A stretch of 64,000 bases of DNA from Thermoplasmata archaeon (GTDB lineage Archaea > Thermoplasmatota > Thermoplasmata > Lutacidiplasmatales > UBA184), in assembly GCA_021844945.1 (NCBI GenBank), contig JAKBSJ010000002.1, positions 294,965-358,964 on the forward strand. Reading direction: 5' to 3'. Shown one piece after another: positions 9,056 through 33,297 of this stretch (position 1 is the stretch's first letter; every line of letters starts with the position of its first letter). A model generated the notes under the pieces. It worked only from the letters and a program-made list of their open reading frames with translations. It did no database searches and was not told the origin of the DNA. The translations under genes and the position numbers were made by a program.

Positions 9056-10588
9056 CTACCTAAGGGTTTCCTTCCAGCGGCGCTTTCCCTGCGGGTCCCG
9101 GCCTTTGGGTCGCGTCAGCGTGACGATCGACTCGCGCAGAAGGAACTGCCGACGTTGGCCGGAACGGCGGGTACGGGCGACATCCACGCTCTCGATCCGG
9201 TACCCGAGGCTTCGTCCGATGCGAGCGGTCAGCAGGTCGCCCGGGACGTAGGTACCGGCCAGTAACGAATCGCCGACCACGAGCACGAACCGACCTCCCG
9301 GGCGCAGCGCTCGGTATACGCTCCGTAGTACATCGGCCAGATCGCGGAAGTACCGGTGGACCACCCCGTGCATGTCGTTGCGACGGTAGGTGCCCTTGCG
9401 CGCGACGTTCTCACGGATCCGGGGAAGGATCTCCTCCAACCAGGGATCCGGGGTCCGGTCCGTGCCCAGGTAATCGCGCGTCGCTGTGCGCGGGAGGTTG
9501 TCGCAGGCGAGCTCCGCGATCCTCAGGGCCGATAGTTCCGGGTAGGAATTCACGTAGCCAAGCCAGGCAAGATCGAGCTTGTAGTTCATCACATAGTCGA
9601 GACCGTTGACGTACGGTGGACTGGTGATCGCGAGGTCCACGCTCTGGGCGGGAAGGTCGATCGTCCGGGAATCGCCCGAGCGGACTTCCGCTGGCGGACC
9701 CCACGGCTCGGAGGACCGCGCCCGTGCGCGCAGGTCCTCGACCATGGTCCGGATCACGTTCTCGTACTGGACGAACGGGAGCGGGCGCTCTCGATCGACG
9801 GGGTCGTAGCCAAGGCAGGGACTCCGTCGTAGGCGGCTTACCGGAACGAGGGTCGCGGCGAAGGCGAGACGAAGGGCGTCGGTGACGCCTCGGGCGTCCG
9901 CGGCCGGAAGGACGGAGCGGATCCGACGAAGTTGGGCCAGCGCCTCGGGCGAGAACTGGCGCCGCGTCTCCCGAAGGAACGGCAGCGCGGCCATCGGCGC
10001 GGGTCGCGCCGTGCGAAGGAGCACCGTCGCGGCGCGTTCCAGATCCCCCGGTGCGAGGTCGATGTCCGTCTTGACCCGCGCCGCGAGAGCCGCCGGGGCC
10101 ATCAGCTCGTAGCCGATCGCGCGTGCGCCGATCCGCTGGGCTTCGATCAGGCTCGTCCCGCTTCCGGCGAAGGGATCGAGGACCGTCGAACCGCGACGCA
10201 TGCCCTCGGAATGGAGCAGGTTCGAAACAAACTCCGCGGAGTACCCCTGGACGTAGGGCCACCAACGATGGAAGGGCAGCCCTTCGTTCGAGCGGAAAGT
10301 GATTGGGCCGCGGTACGATCCCAACGGAACCCCTTCCTCGAGGGCGAAGCGCTCGGCGTAGACTGCCGGTTCGGTGAAGTCCTCCCGCAGCTCGAGCCGA
10401 TCGAAGTCCAGGAGGACCCAGAGCCCCCGACCCATGCGGACGACCTCGCCGCTGCTCGCGAGGCCGCGCAGATCGGAATCTACGCTCGCGACGCCGACGC
10501 CCAGACGACGAGCGATCTGCCGCACGGTCGCTCCGAGCGCCCCGGACTCCGCCAATGCCGTGCGCACGTCGGCGCTCGCTACCGCCAC
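9056..10588 (-). CDS. orphan amino-methyltransferase (N6-A/N4-C DNA MTase-like) with N-terminal winged-helix domain
   Basis: GTG start. wHTH-like TVRQIARRLGVGVASVDSDLRGLASSGEVVRMGRGLWVL. AdoMet motif VLDPFAGSGTSLIEAQRIG. Catalytic DLAITSPPYVNGLDY. LRPGGRFVLVVGDS. No nuclease or specificity gene is adjacent. Confidence 0.8.
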   Translation of the reverse strand: MAVASADVRTALAESGALGATVRQIARRLGVGVASVDSDLRGLASSGEVVRMGRGLWVLLDFDRLELREDFTEPAVYAERFALEEGVPLGSYRGPITFRSNEGLPFHRWWPYVQGYSAEFVSNLLHSEGMRRGSTVLDPFAGSGTSLIEAQRIGARAIGYELMAPAALAARVKTDIDLAPGDLERAATVLLRTARPAPMAALPFLRETRRQFSPEALAQLRRIRSVLPAADARGVTDALRLAFAATLVPVSRLRRSPCLGYDPVDRERPLPFVQYENVIRTMVEDLRARARSSEPWGPPAEVRSGDSRTIDLPAQSVDLAITSPPYVNGLDYVMNYKLDLAWLGYVNSYPELSALRIAELACDNLPRTATRDYLGTDRTPDPWLEEILPRIRENVARKGTYRRNDMHGVVHRYFRDLADVLRSVYRALRPGGRFVLVVGDSLLAGTYVPGDLLTARIGRSLGYRIESVDVARTRRSGQRRQFLLRESIVTLTRPKGRDPQGKRRWKETLR

Positions 10589-10612
10589 GCCGGACGCGAG
10601 AGACGGCTCACG

Positions 10613-11572
10613 CTATGGGGATATCGCCGAACGCCCTGAGGTCCGTCGGACCGGACGGGGGACTACGATTTCGGGCCCGCGGCGCCGCGTCAGGTTCCGC
10701 CGGGGCCGCAGCTCGCGGATCTCCGAGACCAGTTCCTGCCGTAACGTCTCCCGCTCCCGGTCGAATCGGGTCCGCCAAGCCGGCACCGCCCGCTCCGGGT
10801 CGAGGCGCGCGAGCTGTTCTGCGAGCACGTCCCGGTCGTGGAGCTCACCCAACCGTCGCTGGAGCCTCGCGTACCGAGGCGGGAACGTTGAGGCCCGCGC
10901 CCCCGAAAGAGCGTCTTCTAGGTCCGTAAGATAACGGAGCTGACGCACCCGGATCCTTAGCGCGTGCATCCGCTCCGGCAGCGGCGACTTCAACGCTCGA
11001 CGCCGAGCCTTGCTTGCGGCGATGGCCAACCTTCGCCGTTCTCGTTTCAGCTCCTGGGTCAGCGCGACGAGCCGCGCGACCGACCCAATCCCTCGCAACG
11101 ACGCCTCGAGCTCCTCGAAGATCCCGGCCGCCTCTTCGGCGCGTAACGCCGCCCGTAGCAGCTCCCGGCCCGTGCGAGCGCTGTCACGCAGGTGACGCCC
11201 GAATGTCGCCCACGGATCGGTCGCCTTGGCGCGGTCCGGGCCGACGAGCCCCTCCCACAGATCGAGCTCCACATCTAGGTCCCGGACCGATCCCGCGAGC
11301 CGGGTCAGATGGCGCACTCGGCCGGCGAGGATTCGAAGCTCTTCCCGCCGGGGCCGGGGGCCAGTTCTTGACCACCATCGTACGAGGATCCGAAGGCGTC
11401 GGAGGTGCCTATGCAAGTCGTGCAGGTCTTCGGTCGAGGGCTCGGGACGTCCGATCACGGTATCGGTGCGGGATCGGGTGCGTGCGATCTCCTCCCGAGC
11501 ATATCGGCCGAGGGGGGACGGGCTGTTCCGGTGGTTGCCCGGCGATTTGGAGGTCGGCTTCCGAGCGAGCAC
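10613..11572 (-). CDS. CHAD domain-containing protein (polyphosphate-associated)
   Basis: Repeated conserved-His helices: EDLHDLHRHLRRLRILVRWW, VRDLDVELDLW, RMHALRIRVRQLRYLTDL, LGELHDRDVL. Start set at in-frame GTG 11572 so that it does not overlap the divergent ppx. The ORF is open to 11710, so the start is uncertain. Confidence 0.75.
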   Translation of the reverse strand: MLARKPTSKSPGNHRNSPSPLGRYAREEIARTRSRTDTVIGRPEPSTEDLHDLHRHLRRLRILVRWWSRTGPRPRREELRILAGRVRHLTRLAGSVRDLDVELDLWEGLVGPDRAKATDPWATFGRHLRDSARTGRELLRAALRAEEAAGIFEELEASLRGIGSVARLVALTQELKRERRRLAIAASKARRRALKSPLPERMHALRIRVRQLRYLTDLEDALSGARASTFPPRYARLQRRLGELHDRDVLAEQLARLDPERAVPAWRTRFDRERETLRQELVSEIRELRPRRNLTRRRGPEIVVPRPVRRTSGRSAISP

Positions 11573-11685
11573 GGTCGTCTCCCCACGGCGTTCGTCCCCA
11601 AAGCTCCGCGGGGTTCCCGCGGTCGGAGCCGATGGTTCAAAGCCCCGGAGGAGTTGGGGGACTCGTGGCCCGATCGAGGCTCGAA

Positions 11686-13227
11686 ATGTCCGAGCGTGCA
11701 ACGGCCGCACCGCCGATACGCGAGCCGAACGCGATCGGCGTCGTCGACGTCGGATCCAACACGGCCCGTCTCGTCGTGTTCGATACGAACCCGGTCGGCG
11801 TCGTGCGCCCGGTCTTCGAGGTCAAGGAGATCCCGCGTCTCGGAGCCGGGACCGGGTCGGACGGTTCCCTCTCTCCCGAGGCGTTCGCGCGCGGGATCGA
11901 ATCCCTGGGTCGTTTCGCGCGCGCGCTGAAGGCCCTCGGGGTCCCGCGCACGCTCACCGTCACGACGAGCGCCGTCCGGGACGCCCCGAACGGCGCGGAA
12001 TTCGTTCGCACCATCGCTCGCGAGACCGGGATTCTCTTGCGCGTGCTGACCGGGGCCGAGGAAGCGCGCTACGGCTACCTCGGCGTGGCGAGCGCATGGG
12101 CACTGGGGAACGACCTGGTCATCGACTTGGGCGGAGGGTCGCTCCAGGTCGTGGAGACCCGGCTCGGCGCCCTGGCGAACTCGGTGAGCCTTCCGTTGGG
12201 TGGGCTCCGCCTGACCCAGCGCTTCGTCCGCCACGATCCGCCGAAGGAACGCGAGATTGACGACCTGCGCGAGTACGTGCGGGACGCGGTCCGCTCGGCC
12301 ATCGCAGCCTTTGGCGGGTCGAACTATCGCGTCTTCGGGATCGGGGGAACGGTGCGGGCGGTCGCGCGCGCCGCGATCGAACTACGAGAGTACCCGATTC
12401 CGCGGGTCCACGGCTACCCGATCCGAGACCACGACCTCGAAGCGCTGACCGAATTGATCTCCGAGATGCCCACGGCAAAGCGGCGCGCGATCCCGGGCAT
12501 CGGGGTGGAGCGAGCGGACGTCATGGACGCCGGCCTCATCGTCCTCTCGGAGATCCTACGCTCGTCCAAGGCCGACGAGATCGCCGTAAGCGGCACCGGG
12601 ATCCGCGAGGGCCTCGCGCTCGAGGCGATCCGGGCGGAGCTACCGGTCCCCAACGAGGTCCTCGCGATCCGCTCGACGACCGCGGCCGCCGAGCGTTTCA
12701 GTTTTTCCCGCGAGCGGGGTCGGGAGGTCGCCGAGCTCTCCGTGGGGCTATTCGACCTCTTCGCCGACGCTCACCATTGGGGCCCGAGCGAACGGCTCTC
12801 CCTGCGGGTTGCGGCGGAGATGCACGACGCCGGGGTCTCGATCGACCTGTGGCGCCACGCGCACCACTCTGCCTACCTGATCCGCAACTACCCGATCTGG
12901 GGACTCACGCACCGCGAGACCCTCCTCGCCGCCTCGATCGTCGCGCTCCACGCTGGGGACGATCTCCCGTCCGGGATGCGCAAGGGGTTCGCCCCGATCC
13001 TTCGGCCGAGCGACGGAACGACCGCACGCCAGTTGGGCACGATCCTGCAGCTGGCGGGCCTTCTCGCCCCGGCGGATCCGCGGTTCTCCCTCGCGGCGGG
13101 GGGCAAGGTCCTTGCCGTGAGCTTTTCCCGTCCCGCGGGTACGACCCTCCCTCCCAGGACCATGGAGAAGGCCCGCAAACCCATCGAACGCGAACTCGAC
13201 ATCGAGGTGAGGTTCCGGGATGGCTGA
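11686..13227 (+). CDS. ppx: exopolyphosphatase / guanosine pentaphosphate phosphohydrolase family (Ppx-GppA) with C-terminal HD-like domain
   Basis: MSERATAAPPIREPNAIGVVDVGSNTARLVVFD.. (ASKHA phosphate-1 motif), DLGGGSLQ, GIGGTVRA. The C-terminus has EMHDAGVSIDLWRHAHHSAYLI. ATG 11686 lies in the frame of ORF 11014..13227. Confidence 0.9.
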   Translation: MSERATAAPPIREPNAIGVVDVGSNTARLVVFDTNPVGVVRPVFEVKEIPRLGAGTGSDGSLSPEAFARGIESLGRFARALKALGVPRTLTVTTSAVRDAPNGAEFVRTIARETGILLRVLTGAEEARYGYLGVASAWALGNDLVIDLGGGSLQVVETRLGALANSVSLPLGGLRLTQRFVRHDPPKEREIDDLREYVRDAVRSAIAAFGGSNYRVFGIGGTVRAVARAAIELREYPIPRVHGYPIRDHDLEALTELISEMPTAKRRAIPGIGVERADVMDAGLIVLSEILRSSKADEIAVSGTGIREGLALEAIRAELPVPNEVLAIRSTTAAAERFSFSRERGREVAELSVGLFDLFADAHHWGPSERLSLRVAAEMHDAGVSIDLWRHAHHSAYLIRNYPIWGLTHRETLLAASIVALHAGDDLPSGMRKGFAPILRPSDGTTARQLGTILQLAGLLAPADPRFSLAAGGKVLAVSFSRPAGTTLPPRTMEKARKPIERELDIEVRFRDG

Positions 13228-13918
13228 CCCGGCTGCGCCGCCGCGGGGCTATCCCGGGCGCCTTATCGTCCTCGAGGGTCTGGATGGCAGCGGGAAATCG
13301 ACCCAGGCCCGCCTCCTGGGCAAGTGGCTCGCGGCCCGGGGGTATCGTGTCTTCTTGACCGAGTGGAACTCCTCCGACCTCGTCAGCGACACGATCCGTC
13401 GCGGGAAGAAGCGCGGCCTGCTGACCCCGACCACCTTCAGCCTGCTCCACGCGACCGATTTTGCCGACCGATTCGAGCGCCAGATCCTCCCACCCTTGCG
13501 GGCGGGCTACGTGGTCGTGTGCGATCGCTACTCGTTCACGGCGTTCGCCCGGGACTCGGCGCGGGGGTGCGCGCCGGCCTGGGTGCGCAACATCTACCAG
13601 TTCGCGCCGCGACCGGACCGTACCTACTACTTCCGGGTCCCGGTGGCCGTCACGTTCCGCCGGAAGCAAGCGTCCCGAATGAAGATCTCCTACTACGAGG
13701 CCGGCATGGACTTGGGGCTCGCGGACAACGTCGAGGATAGCTACAAATTGTTCCAGGCCCGGCTGAAGCAGGAGTACGACCGCATGTCCGATACCGACGG
13801 CTTCACCGTGATCGACGCGAAGGGAACGGTGGAGGAAATCCAGCAGCAACTCCGCGAGGACCTTCGGCCCGTCCTCGACGGGTTCCCCACCGGGGAGAGG
13901 CTCCAGCATGAGGGATAG
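13220..13918 (+). CDS. thymidylate-kinase-fold P-loop protein A (ppx-coupled; candidate polyP kinase/phosphotransferase subunit)
   Basis: P-loop LEGLDGSGKSTQ, LLHATDFADRFE, VVCDRYSFTAFARD. The start overlaps the ppx stop by 8 nt. It lacks the TREPGGT-type dTMP loop (has TEWNSSD instead). Confidence 0.85.
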   Translation: MADPAAPPRGYPGRLIVLEGLDGSGKSTQARLLGKWLAARGYRVFLTEWNSSDLVSDTIRRGKKRGLLTPTTFSLLHATDFADRFERQILPPLRAGYVVVCDRYSFTAFARDSARGCAPAWVRNIYQFAPRPDRTYYFRVPVAVTFRRKQASRMKISYYEAGMDLGLADNVEDSYKLFQARLKQEYDRMSDTDGFTVIDAKGTVEEIQQQLREDLRPVLDGFPTGERLQHEG

Positions 13919-14657
13919 GACGTACGGAACGCCGCTGCCCGGGATGCTGGACGAGAATCTGCCGGGGAAGCTGATCGTCATCGAGGGCGCCGACGGATCC
14001 GGACGCACGACCGAGGCCGAGCGTCTGAAAGAAGCGCTCGAGATCGAGGGGCACTCGATCGTCGATACCGGCTTGCGCCGTTCCACTCTGGTCAGCGAGC
14101 GGATCGACCTCGCGAAGCAGGGCCACACGCTCGCGGCCACGACCATGGCCCTCCTCTACGCCACCGACTTCGCCGATCAGCTCGAGAACAAGATCATCCC
14201 GGCGCTCGCGGGCGGGAGCACCGTCCTCGCGGACCGGTACATCTACACTCTGACGGCCCGCGCGGTGGTCCGCGGGGCCTCCCGGCAGTGGGCTCAGCAG
14301 CTCTACGGATTCGCCCTGCGCCCGGACCTCACGATCTTCTTGGACGCGCGTCCGGAGATCCTGATGCACCGCGCGATCTCGAAGTACGGGAGCCTGGATT
14401 ACTGGGAGTCGGGCATGGACCTGTCGATCTCACCGGATCGGTTCGAGAGCTTCCTCGAGTACCAGGCGCGCCTACGGCGCGAATTCGGCTGGATGGTGGA
14501 AGCGTACGGCTTCTCCGTGGTCGATGCGAACCGCCACCCGGATCTGGTGCACGAGGATGTCCTGAAGCGGGTGCTGCCCCTCTATGCGCCGCCGAAGCGG
14601 CGTCGATCCCTCCCTCCGCCTACGTCTCGCGCTGGGCCATCCACTGCTTCCGCGTGA
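13908..14657 (+). CDS. thymidylate-kinase-fold P-loop protein B (paralog of A; Walker-A Lys replaced by Arg)
   Basis: IEGADGSGRTTE (GR instead of GK), LLYATDFADQLE, VLADRYIYTLTARA, DYWESGMDLS. ATG 13908 overlaps the stop of protein A by 11 nt. An alternative ATG lies at 13944. Confidence 0.85.
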   Translation: MRDRTYGTPLPGMLDENLPGKLIVIEGADGSGRTTEAERLKEALEIEGHSIVDTGLRRSTLVSERIDLAKQGHTLAATTMALLYATDFADQLENKIIPALAGGSTVLADRYIYTLTARAVVRGASRQWAQQLYGFALRPDLTIFLDARPEILMHRAISKYGSLDYWESGMDLSISPDRFESFLEYQARLRREFGWMVEAYGFSVVDANRHPDLVHEDVLKRVLPLYAPPKRRRSLPPPTSRAGPSTASA

Positions 14658-15129
14658 GCAGCCACTTCAGGCGAGCCCCTCCCGGCGCGACCTTTTGCGG
14701 GAATTCGAGCGCCGCCGTCCCCGCCCGCGATAGGCGGGCCACCGGCCTCGCTTCCCCGGTCAGCGCGAGACCGAGGATCTCGGCGAGCCCGGGCTCGTGA
14801 CCGACGAGAACCCCGCACGAGGCCCCCCTCCACTCTCGGGCCACCCGGGCCAGAGCCGCCGACGGGTCGCCCTCGAGACGAAGCTCGGGCCACTCGAGAA
14901 CGCGCACCGGCGGATCGAACGCCTCGGCCCATATTTCGGCGGTGCGGGCCGCGCGACGCAACGGGCTGGTCGCGATGCGGTCGATCTCTTCGACCTCCGC
15001 GGCGAACGCTCTTGCGGCCGCCCGCGTTTCACGGACCCCGTCGGCCGACAGGGGTCGCCCGACGTCGTCCGGCCATCGGGCGGGATTGCGTGCAACGGCA
15101 GGGCCATGACGGACGAGGAAGAGCTCCAC
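14620..15129 (-). CDS. SixA-type phosphohistidine phosphatase (histidine phosphatase superfamily)
   Basis: VELFLVRHGPA (RHG motif), SPLRRAARTAE, LVGHEPGL. Start placed at in-frame GTG 15129; the ORF extends to 15249. The 3' end overlaps the convergent Tmk-fold B gene by 38 nt. Confidence 0.75.
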   Translation of the reverse strand: MELFLVRHGPAVARNPARWPDDVGRPLSADGVRETRAAARAFAAEVEEIDRIATSPLRRAARTAEIWAEAFDPPVRVLEWPELRLEGDPSAALARVAREWRGASCGVLVGHEPGLAEILGLALTGEARPVARLSRAGTAALEFPQKVAPGGARLKWLLTRKQWMAQRET

Positions 15130-15275
15130 GGTCCCCCCGTCAGGGTAAACCGGCGCATGAACGTTCGGTCGCGCGCGAGGGGACCCACCGTGGCCACCGC
15201 CGCGGTTCGTCGATGCCGGGTGAGACGGATGTTCGGGAAGGGAAGGCATAAGGCTGCGGGACCGAGTTCCGTATC

Positions 15276-31207: not shown

Positions 31208-31280
31208 TGGGCCGGGACGGATTCGAACCGTCGATCTCCGCCTTGTAAGGGCGGCGTCCTCACCGCTAGACGACCGGCCC
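31208..31280 (-). tRNA. tRNA-Val (anticodon UAC)
   Basis: Manual cloverleaf: GGGCCGG/TC/GTCT-AGCGGTGA-GGAC/G/CCGCC-CTTACAA-GGCGG/AGATC/GACGG-TTCGAAT-CCGTC/CCGGCCC+A. CCA is not encoded and there is no intron. Confidence 0.93.
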
Positions 31281-31298
31281 GCGGGGTGGGACGGGACC

Positions 31299-33086
31299 TC
31301 AGCCCTCGCTATTGGTCGTTTCGGTCGCAGGGTGAACGCGATGACGTAGGCGAACCGCGAGTCCGCGTCCGAGCTGGGCCATCGCAGGGCCCGGCACCAT
31401 CGCCTCGCCGACGGCGGCGAGCTCTCCGTGTTGCAGCACCGCTACGGCATCCCCCACGCGGATCGCGGGAGAGGCATGGCGCACGCCCGGGACGAAGACA
31501 TCTCCCGCGAGCGGCATCTCGGGATCGACCTCGACCGTGAGCTCGAGGTCCGGGAGCATTCGTCGAGCTCCGGCGATCGTGAGCTGGAACAATCCCCGTT
31601 CCTCCCGCCAGGTGGCAAGGTCACTGCCGGCCCCGTCCGTGACCCGTTGAAACCACGGACGCCCGGCGAGTCGCACCGGAGCCGCGAAAAGACGCTCGGC
31701 CGCCGGCCGACCGAACTGAAAGGCGGCGATCTCCGCGAGTTCCTCGCGGACCACCGCGAGCGGGCCACCGGGCACGGGGGAGAGCGGTTCGAGAGCGGAG
31801 GCGACGGCGGCACGCAGGGAGTCGATCGCTTCCGCGGAGGTCGTCCGATGGTCCCCGATCGTCCAAACGGTCGGGGTCACCGGGCTCCGGTTCTCCCGCA
31901 GGAACCCGTACGTCCCGGGATCGAGGTGGACGATGATCGAGCGATACGCCCCGGCCCGAACGAGGTGATCGAACCCCTCGCGAACGATTCCCCGCTCGGC
32001 CTCGCTCCACTCTCCCGTCACCGGGATATCGTATTGCCGCGCCGGGTAGACGTCTTCGAGCTCTCGCGGAACGAGGCCGATCGGCGAGCTCACCGATACC
32101 ACGTGCAACCGCTCGGCCCTCGCGAGTCCTTCCCATGCCTGAGCGAAGCGGCGGTGGGTGCGCGAGCGCCGGTAGGGTTTCGTGCGGCTGCACGGAACGA
32201 TGAGTAGGACCTCCTTCGACGTCGGGGGGCGGTAGCGCTCGACCAGGCGAGCACGGAAACGCCGCATCTCGGGCCGACGCAGGGACTCGACGAGCACGTA
32301 ACGTCCCGGCGTACCCGTTCCTACGACCGCGGTCCGCTCTTCGAGCAGCGCCCCGAGCGTGCCGTCCGTGTAGCGTAGCATTTCGGCCAGTGCCGGCTCC
32401 GCCGCGAGCCGGGCTTCGACGAGCTCGCGCAGGCGGCCGACCTGCAAGGCCCGCCGGCTCGCCTCGAGAGCACGGGCGTATTCCTGCCGCGCGAATCCGG
32501 GAGGATGGGCTGGGATCCCGGCAAGTATCGGCTCCGTGCCCAGCGATTCATCGAATGGAACCCCGCGGGCCTCGAGCATCTGACCCTCGGTCGTGTCCAC
32601 CAGGTCGATCCCGAGGTAGACAAGGAACGGGACCCGGTGCGGCAGCGCTACGCGAGGCGCCCAGAGTACCGGACCCGGGCCCAAGTGGCCGCGAATGGCC
32701 CCGACCGTGGCGACGAACGGCTCTCCGTCGGTCCAGAGGGCCCGAGCGTTCGCGAGGACGACGAGCTCCGCGCCGGCGATCGCGTCCAGCTCCCCCGCGG
32801 AAATCGGGCCGTGGACCATTCCGATCCCCGGAGCGACTAGGACTGCACGCCCCCTCCCGCCTTCGATCTCGGGTGCGAGCACCGGAAAGCTCAGGTCGAT
32901 GGAATGCCCGGCGAGTGCGAGGCGCAGGGGTCGCGTTCCGTTGGGAACGTCGGGACGAGCTTCGAGGAATCCGTACCGATCCGTCGGCACGGTATCGATC
33001 AGCGTTGGTACGTCAAACGTCGCGCCACCGACCGACGCGGAACCCAGGACACCAAGGCCCTCGAGCGTCCGTATCGATCGGGTCAT
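31299..33086 (-). CDS. arcS: archaeosine synthase (TgtA2/ArcS: TGT-like N-domain, DUF5591-type core, C-terminal PUA)
   Basis: LLIVPCSRTKPYRRS core motif, VSVSSPIGLVPRELE. PUA-like C-terminus GDVFVPGVRHASPAIRVGDAVAVLQHGELAAVGEAMV. Confidence 0.8.
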   Translation of the reverse strand: MTRSIRTLEGLGVLGSASVGGATFDVPTLIDTVPTDRYGFLEARPDVPNGTRPLRLALAGHSIDLSFPVLAPEIEGGRGRAVLVAPGIGMVHGPISAGELDAIAGAELVVLANARALWTDGEPFVATVGAIRGHLGPGPVLWAPRVALPHRVPFLVYLGIDLVDTTEGQMLEARGVPFDESLGTEPILAGIPAHPPGFARQEYARALEASRRALQVGRLRELVEARLAAEPALAEMLRYTDGTLGALLEERTAVVGTGTPGRYVLVESLRRPEMRRFRARLVERYRPPTSKEVLLIVPCSRTKPYRRSRTHRRFAQAWEGLARAERLHVVSVSSPIGLVPRELEDVYPARQYDIPVTGEWSEAERGIVREGFDHLVRAGAYRSIIVHLDPGTYGFLRENRSPVTPTVWTIGDHRTTSAEAIDSLRAAVASALEPLSPVPGGPLAVVREELAEIAAFQFGRPAAERLFAAPVRLAGRPWFQRVTDGAGSDLATWREERGLFQLTIAGARRMLPDLELTVEVDPEMPLAGDVFVPGVRHASPAIRVGDAVAVLQHGELAAVGEAMVPGPAMAQLGRGLAVRLRHRVHPATETTNSEG

Positions 33087-33297
33087 GGTTCTCCGGGCCC
33101 GTCCGATGGGGTGCGCGCGCGCAGATCCGCCTCCTGTGGCCCTCGGCGAGACGATCGGCGCTCTTCCCCGTCGAGTCTTCGTGCGTCGAGATCCCCGCTA
33201 CGACCCGGGGGGAGCCGCCTCGTCGAACCTTCTCCGGGACCACGGGAAAGACCGTGCGCAAATCGGGTCGTCATGTTCCGCGCCTCCGGGAGGCACA

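Follow-up and report, generated by a model that had tools for sequence, protein, structure and literature searches.

We analysed 64,000 nucleotides of a Thermoplasmata archaeon genome (GenBank assembly GCA_021844945.1, contig JAKBSJ010000002.1, positions 294,965 to 358,964 of the forward strand), a stretch referred to here as the window and used for all coordinates. Our subject is a pair of adjacent genes in it, A and B, which encode two proteins of the thymidylate kinase (Tmk) fold and lie among genes linked to polyphosphate (polyP). The operon begins with ppx (11686..13227, + strand), which encodes an exopolyphosphatase (Ppx/GppA) and lies directly upstream of A. Its stop codon and the ATG of A overlap by 8 nt (junction ATGGCTGA). 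Open reading frame (ORF) A (13220..13918, + strand) encodes 232 aa, and its end overlaps the ATG of ORF B (13908..14657, + strand; 249 aa) by 11 nt. The three genes ppx, A and B form a single translationally coupled unit, an arrangement that suits roughly equimolar production of A and B. Both flanking genes are on the opposite strand. A CHAD-domain gene (10613..11572, - strand; Pfam PF05235 CHAD, E = 1.7e-18) is divergent from ppx, and a gene for a SixA-like histidine phosphatase (14620..15249, - strand; Pfam His_Phos_1, E = 7e-13) is convergent with B. The ppx product matches the Pfam Ppx-GppA family (E = 1e-56) and its domain III (E = 1.3e-13). Its best NCBIfam model is the exopolyphosphatase model TIGR03706 (E = 1.1e-80), the GppA equivalog matching more weakly.

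Both A and B match the Tmk family in Pfam (PF02223, Thymidylate_kin), with E-values of 8e-25 and 3e-21, respectively. As paralogs they share 37% identity over 207 aa (E = 5e-47). An earlier note on this DNA had described them as sharing private motifs, and every motif that it quoted for either protein translates exactly. The P-loop of A is GLDGSGKST (13277-13303) and that of B is GADGSGRTT (13986-14012). The Walker-A pattern GxxxxGK(S/T) is thus present in A, with Lys26 encoded at 13295..13297, and absent from B, where the corresponding codon is CGC for Arg33 (14004..14006). The first shared motif reads LLHATDFAD in A (13442-13468) and LLYATDFAD in B (14151-14177). The second contains the DRY Arg (R103 of A, R110 of B) and reads CDRYSFTAFAR (13520-13552) and ADRYIYTLTAR (14229-14261), whilst the third reads YYEAGMDLG (13691-13717) and YWESGMDLS (14400-14426). 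A has in addition an intact lid Arg, R148. Where Tmk has the T-R-E-P-G-G-T loop of its thymidine monophosphate (dTMP) site, A has TEWNSSD (13358..13378) and B has VDTGLRR (14061..14081), the latter with two conserved Arg residues (R57/R58).

The closest structures belong to a protein of Sulfurisphaera tokodaii, STK_15430 (St1543; 2plr, 4nzy, 4rzx, 5h70), deposited as 'dTMP kinase'. A matches it over residues 13-220 (phmmer E = 1.8e-58) and is 47% identical over the full length; B matches it with E = 4e-33. The two proteins share TEWNSSD, HATDF(A/S)DR.ER, DRY..TA.ARDS and the lid, and differ in that STK_15430 has QEAGADI where A has YYEAGMDL. STK_15430 was crystallised alone and is thus silent on any interface between two subunits. 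An AlphaFold2 model of B (mean predicted local distance difference test score, pLDDT, 80.3; predicted template modelling score 0.79) is low in confidence from about residue 228 onwards. Its best superpositions in the PDB are on the St1543 structures (5h70: target-normalised template modelling (TM) score 0.90, root mean square deviation 2.4 A), ahead of canonical Tmks (TM about 0.8).

The dTMP site of Tmk was compared with A and B column by column, using a control set of 67 single-copy canonical Tmks from diverse genomes that were picked up by the pattern (L/F)EG(L/I)DGSGK. The Walker-A Lys found in all 67 is circular, since the pattern itself demands it. The canonical loop reads T-R-E-P-G-G-T, with Glu in 59/67 and Pro in 62/67 sequences; the stacking Phe is present in 54/67 and the base-binding Arg in 61/67. 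At the matching positions A has an E-W-N loop, His and Phe, and B has a G-L-R loop, Tyr and Phe. The dTMP-site residues of Tmk are therefore replaced in both proteins, as the earlier note had claimed. Its tentative by-eye alignment of LLxAADRxxH with LLHATDFADR also stands: HMMER pairs LLHATDFADR of A with LLFSADRAEH of Thermus thermophilus Tmk, so that the Tmk Arg is matched by Phe81 and the thymine-stacking Phe by His77. The label 'phosphate-binding' that it gave to the replaced Arg does not, as the counterpart in Mycobacterium tuberculosis, Arg74, hydrogen-bonds the thymine base (PMC3619541). In that structure with dTMP, it is the DRY Arg95, together with Tyr39 of the loop after strand 2, that holds the phosphate (PMC3619541). 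The motifs shared by A and B are uncommon in the 67 canonical Tmks. Their Y(Y/W)E(A/S)GMDL stretch is part of the lid region, and its columns are gapped in 23-36 of the 67 sequences. Compared with canonical Tmks (T. thermophilus 5x7j, M. tuberculosis 1g3u), A and B thus retain the fold, P-loop, DRY, lid Arg and architecture of the ATP site, but carry extra lid sequence and have the stacking Phe changed to His (A) or Tyr (B), the base-binding Arg to Phe and R-E-P to EWN (A) or GLR (B), with B also lacking the Walker-A Lys.

A pair of this kind has been described as PPK3 by Hofmann et al. [quoted passage not shown] Saci_2019, the catalytic subunit (cPPK3), makes polyP from ATP on its own, whilst Saci_2020, the regulatory subunit (rPPK3), is inactive alone and activates Saci_2019 about 10-fold at a 1:1 ratio. 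In the polyP-dependent kinase direction Saci_2019 alone has about one tenth of the activity of the holoenzyme. [quoted passage not shown] The authors report that dTMP-binding residues are not conserved in PPK3, its second substrate being polyP, and that residues of a basic cleft are conserved in the catalytic (c) but not in the regulatory (r) subunits. They name STK_15430 as a cPPK3 homolog and put the inactivity of rPPK3 down to replacement of the DRX arginine. The ppx/sixA/CHAD neighbourhood recurs across the family, CHAD being associated with polyP granules (all PMC12995831). The hosts in the main texts of paper and preprint are Sulfolobaceae, Nitrososphaeraceae and a few scattered bacteria (PMC12995831); Thermoplasmata are not mentioned in either, supplements aside. 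PPK3 is thus already published, and Thermoplasmata are a lineage not highlighted before in those main texts.

The agreement with this system is close. In both, tandem paralogs of the dTMP kinase fold lie directly downstream of ppx, with sixA and CHAD in the cluster. In both, the acceptor site of the first subunit is remodelled and basic and its catalytic set complete, the second subunit is short of one catalytic residue, and the dTMP-binding residues are lost from the two alike. The cPPK3 signature TEWNSS is present in A, and E48, W49, N50, S51 and S52 of A are invariant in 15/15 cPPK3 sequences, as are K26, R103 and R148. The differences are that here sixA and CHAD are on the opposite strand and the host belongs to Thermoplasmatota, and that B has Arg at Walker-A with DRY intact, whereas Saci_2020 has the Walker-A Lys and Gly in place of the DRX Arg. 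We conclude that the locus is a polyphosphate operon encoding PPK3, with A as cPPK3 and B as rPPK3, and put the probability of this at roughly 0.85. The presence of ppx, CHAD and sixA as neighbours points to polyP as the new substrate, which the earlier note had left unnamed. Its broader reading, that the acceptor site was remodelled and that A is catalytic whilst B may be impaired or regulatory, is supported. The remodelling matches the residue swaps in both subunits and the lack of conservation of dTMP-binding residues in published PPK3 (PMC12995831, main text), and the division of labour matches the biochemistry of Saci_2019 and Saci_2020. What does not carry over is the weight it placed on the Lys-to-Arg change: Saci_2020 keeps its Walker-A Lys, so this change cannot be credited for the inactivity measured in Sulfolobus.

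On this assignment, A would keep the ATP/ADP site of Tmk (Walker-A Lys, DRY Arg and lid Arg), whilst its thymidylate pocket would be exchanged for a basic cleft that takes the end of a polyP chain. A is predicted to catalyse ATP + polyP(n) <-> ADP + polyP(n+1), and B would be a non-catalytic subunit for oligomerisation and activation in a heteromer, probably alpha2beta2. If the Sulfolobus enzyme is a guide, the equilibrium may favour ATP formation from ADP and polyP, with polyP serving as a phosphate store and emergency energy buffer. Ppx would degrade polyP, the CHAD protein would sit on the granule and the SixA-like phosphatase would be part of the same polyP turnover module. A similar principle, in which an inactive P-loop kinase module oligomerises with and activates an active one, is known from the two-domain class II PPK2 (Pseudomonas aeruginosa PA3455/PPK2C), an analogy drawn in the PPK3 paper. 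PPK2 is however a separate P-loop kinase family, its two modules are fused domains, and it has the ADP and polyP sites the other way round from PPK3 (PMC12995831, main text). Membership of A or B in PPK2 was rejected, as neither matches PF03976 at E<=0.01 and the same paper keeps the families apart. A genome with PPK3 would be expected to carry a separate canonical dTMP kinase and, as a rule, neither PPK1 nor PPK2; the 34 window ORFs scanned contained no PPK1 or PPK2 domain.

Four points weigh against the PPK3 assignment. The biochemistry of PPK3 is that of the S. acidocaldarius enzyme only, and both this clade and rPPK3s with Walker-A Arg and intact DRY are known from their sequences. B keeps ADRY (R110), although loss of the DRX Arg is a published feature of rPPK3. 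The dTMP kinase equivalog TIGR00041 has a cut-off of 83.25 bits, which is reached by A (96.1) and just reached by B (83.3); this accounts for the 'dTMP kinase' names that homologs carry in public databases. Lastly, there is no third Tmk-like ORF in the 64-kb window, so that a separate tmk of this genome is not visible there.

We then considered how far the Walker-A change extends, since the earlier note had allowed that it could be noise confined to one strain. At least two substitutions separate the CGC codon of Arg33 from every Lys codon. Walker-A Arg is present in 117/120 of the closest homologs of B (69-97% identity), the remaining three having no P-loop match, and Arg33 is invariant in an alignment of 50 sequences of the Thermoplasmata clade. 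Together, the codon and the invariance across the clade rule out a sequencing error or strain noise. Arg is also found in 14/14 syntenic second subunits, which come from Thermoplasmata, Nitrososphaerales, a Sumerlaeota bacterium and Metallosphaera. Representatives of 50%-identity clusters were sorted into c and r types with hidden Markov models built from 15 c and 14 r sequences, so that the Walker column adds a few bits to its own classification. Among 84 B-type domains sorted in this way, the Walker-A residue was Arg in 70, Cys in nine, His, Val, Pro and Ser in one each, and Lys in one. By contrast, 40/43 A-type domains have Lys. Restricting the count to domains separated by more than 30 bits gave the same picture, with Arg in 56, Cys in eight and Lys in one of 68 r-type domains. 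In P-loop NTPases, replacement of the Walker-A Lys by Arg generally keeps nucleotide binding but abolishes phosphoryl transfer.

Other charged positions also separate the two subunits. At R84 and R87 of A, all 15 c subunits have Arg, whereas r subunits have Gln (14/14) and Asn (13/14), corresponding to Q91 and N94 of B. Further basic residues found only in the c type are R65, R139 and K155 of A. There are good grounds to predict that B is catalytically inactive and could not transfer phosphate, because its Walker-A Lys is replaced by Arg and the c-specific basic residues are missing.

The published explanation for inactivity, loss of the DRX Arg, has a narrower distribution. Among syntenic rPPK3s 13/14 retain this residue, as do 103/104 of the r-type representative domains. 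In the 39 Sulfolobaceae rPPK3s (the type of locus L013; P0275-P0313) it is lost without exception, to Gly in 35 and to Ser in four, and their Walker-A position is polymorphic, 24 of them carrying Arg and 15 Lys. The S. acidocaldarius rPPK3, which we take to be Saci_2020, reads GIMSSGKTT and ADGY, with the Walker Lys kept and the DRX Arg gone. Explanation by DRX loss is thus valid only for the sampled Sulfolobaceae, whilst outside this family the near-universal hallmark of rPPK3 is loss of the Walker-A Lys, a point absent from the main texts of paper and preprint. Saci_2020, the regulatory subunit that has been characterised, is atypical and the B-like type is the majority.

A neighbour-joining tree of c and r subunits, rough and without support values, placed the r subunits together and apart from the c subunits, with Sulfolobaceae on a long branch. 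Lys-bearing Sulfolobaceae sequences formed nested subclades among Arg-bearing ones. The most economical order of events, we infer, would be that the Walker-A Lys was lost in the rPPK3 ancestor, the DRX Arg was then lost in Sulfolobaceae and Lys was regained in some of them. The polymorphism at Walker-A in Sulfolobaceae suggests relaxed constraint on the P-loop after loss of the DRX Arg.

B-type subunits have conserved features of their own. Within the 50-sequence clade, the P-loop glycines G27 and G32 are invariant in B together with D29, S31, R33 and T35, and so are D109-R110-Y111, R118, R122, the lid Arg155 and the lid segment E167-D171. All these positions are conserved across lineages too. 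Basic residues found only in the r type are R57, R58, K95, R126 and K159. The R57 and R58 columns are each basic in 13/14 rPPK3s, with Arg in 12/14 and 13/14, respectively. Sulfolobaceae rPPK3s lack the r-only basic residues, and where B has the acceptor-loop Arg pair (GLRRS) they read GLQMS or GIQSS, without a basic residue in either column. A conserved P-loop with Arg, a DRY Arg, a lid Arg and an Arg pair fit a subunit that still binds ATP/ADP and/or polyP. It is conceivable, though we would not favour it, that the B-type subunit is a ligand-binding sensor or anchor and not a dead scaffold, with Saci_2020 an atypical derivative that has decayed further. If this were true, energy charge could act through B on how processive the enzyme is or on which way it runs.

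The distribution of the pair was examined through its synteny. The close homologs of B that carry names are all 'MAG: Thermoplasmata archaeon' (MAG, metagenome-assembled genome; phylum Thermoplasmatota). The whole CHAD/ppx/c/r/sixA cluster was found at eight loci with 68-74% identity, seven from named Thermoplasmata MAGs and one labelled 'bacterium'. The latter (L001; DAIDCO010000074.1, 'bacterium isolate clean3188') has a Thermoplasmata-type cluster with 74% identity to the window, and is probably an unclassified or mis-binned archaeal contig. The SixA-like gene is arranged alike in 8/8 of these loci and the CHAD gene occupies the same position in 6/8. The order ppx-c-r is conserved in the eight Thermoplasmata MAGs, at two of three Nitrososphaerales loci and in Metallosphaera, whilst the third Nitrososphaerales locus and the Sumerlaeota locus have the c-r pair only. 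Among the matches listed there were 80 Tmk-containing loci, and two distinct Tmk-like ORFs occurred only in 13 PPK3-type loci. A fourteenth locus with two matches (L044) proved to be one ORF matched twice and was excluded.

Identities follow the same division. B is 50-55% identical to the second subunits of the Nitrososphaerales and Sumerlaeota pairs, compared with 37% to A, and A is 47-55% identical to cPPK3s, those of Sulfolobaceae included. A recent, lineage-specific duplication of tmk was rejected, since B is nearer to second subunits from other phyla than to A and the neighbour-joining tree groups the r subunits together.

Natural fusions were also found. In Alicyclobacillaceae a single chain of 460 aa (P0122, WP_258112839.1) combines c and r, with His at the Walker position of the r half. 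Two proteins of 680-696 aa (P0124, and P0142 from Ignavibacteria, MBI1803771.1) join c to a degenerate r and to a Ppx-GppA domain III/HD region. Such c+r and c+r+Ppx fusions support an obligate pairing of the c and r subunits, coupled both physically and in function, and a link to polyP.

Five larger proteins came from the search of representatives with B. One, from the protist Ancoracysta twista (P0260; EukProt EP00164_P001487, 794 aa), combines SPX, Tmk-like and APH/DUF2252 domains, and four others (P0202, P0236, P0267 and P0226; about 900-1280 aa) combine MFS_1, Tmk-like and APH/DUF2252 domains. In all five the Tmk-like domain is cPPK3-like, with an xTxWNSS loop, GSGKS and DR[YWH]. SPX is a sensor domain that controls polyP synthesis in eukaryotes. 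These SPX- and MFS_1-fused proteins may be eukaryotic enzymes of the PPK3 type; neither SPX nor such fusions are mentioned in the sections consulted of the main text of the PPK3 paper (PMC12995831). A further protein of 1610 aa (P0182), encoded on a 137-kb Logan contig, has two InPase domains followed by a cPPK3-like Tmk domain.

Three other explanations were weighed against PPK3. The best placed of these, which we nevertheless regard as improbable, is that the pair is a phosphotransferase for some other acceptor, another nucleotide or one of the (p)ppGpp type, and not a true polyphosphate kinase. Ppx/GppA enzymes can act on pppGpp and the neighbour has its weaker GppA equivalog match; at both key catalytic positions B also departs from the regulatory subunit that has been characterised, and for this clade identity is a matter of sequence comparison. 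Yet A has 47-55% identity to cPPK3s together with all the residues specific to that family, and the best model for the neighbouring Ppx is an exopolyphosphatase and not GppA. The CHAD protein is moreover a polyP-granule marker, and fusions to Ppx domain III exist.

Slighter still is the chance that B is itself active, with Arg standing in for the Walker-A Lys, in a complex whose active sites would be of two kinds (for instance, dedicated to synthesis and to ATP regeneration, or differing in nucleotide specificity). B does keep its P-loop, DRY, R118, R122 and Arg155, more conservation than is usual for a dead site. Against this, such a substitution generally abolishes phosphoryl transfer, as general knowledge of P-loop enzymes has it, and residues such as Cys (9/84 r-type representatives), His, Val, Pro or Ser are no stand-in for Lys. 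B is furthermore without the c-specific R84 and R87, and the r subunit of Sulfolobus is inactive (PMC12995831, main text).

A tandem duplication of tmk, with A and/or B as normal thymidylate kinases (EC 2.7.4.9), is hardly credible: the Thymidylate_kin matches in Pfam, TIGR00041 scores at or above cut-off and the name 'dTMP kinase' given to homologs by NCBI and JGI favour it, but the stacking Phe, base-recognising Arg and R-E-P loop are all replaced, by residues invariant in the family, the Sulfolobus orthologs lack a dTMP kinase activity that a third unlinked paralog has (PMC12995831, main text), the operon context is polyP metabolism, and among the PDB titles of the nearest structure (2plr, 4nzy, 4rzx, 5h70) none has dTMP, the only ligand named being ADP in 5h70.

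Identification of the pair as PPK3 has consequences for annotation. Well over 100 clusters at 90% identity, most of them from Thermoplasmata MAGs, bear the label 'dTMP kinase' or 'thymidylate kinase' and almost certainly represent the two subunits of a polyphosphate kinase. It would also give widespread soil and sediment archaea a route for polyP synthesis and ATP regeneration that would escape surveys of PPK1 and PPK2. A pair from Thermoplasmata, Nitrososphaerales or bacteria would be a better model for the function of the regulatory subunit, because the hallmark outside Sulfolobaceae is a site that has lost its Walker-A Lys but is otherwise conserved.

Some further details of the locus were recorded. 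The ORF of the CHAD gene extends to 11710, with the GTG at 11572 as its most plausible start. Between CHAD and ppx (11500-11700) nothing convincing was found as an AT-rich archaeal promoter box, and an Rfam scan of the window returned two tRNAs only, neither of them at the locus. The SixA-like protein matches TIGR00249 (sixA) with E = 2.8e-16, under the cut-off, and its gene has an alternative GTG start at 15129. The 3' ends of B and the SixA-like gene overlap by 38 nt (14620..14657), an overlap that recurs in 8/8 Thermoplasmata loci (L001-L008). The C-terminal tail of B is rich in Pro and Arg, has low pLDDT and finishes with AAS(A/G), a recurring motif on which the SixA frame of the opposite strand may impose a constraint.

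Elsewhere in the window, the ORF adjoining the CHAD gene (9056..10612, - strand) has weak, partial matches to N6_N4_Mtase/UPF0020 and to an AbiEi_4 antitoxin-like helix-turn-helix, and may encode a methyltransferase. Archaeal-type genes include those for an archaeosine-synthase-like protein (DUF5591, TGT_C2 and PUA domains), Tpt1 and an archaeal-type ProRS. The archaeosine-synthase-like gene is followed directly by a tRNA gene (31208-31280), within 31208..33197 on the - strand, which is among the signs of an archaeal origin of the window. The segment 48001..50000 has an AT skew of 0.219, compared with at most |0.12| elsewhere, and a positive GC skew; it codes on the minus strand for a membrane protein with RDD and DUF1614 domains.

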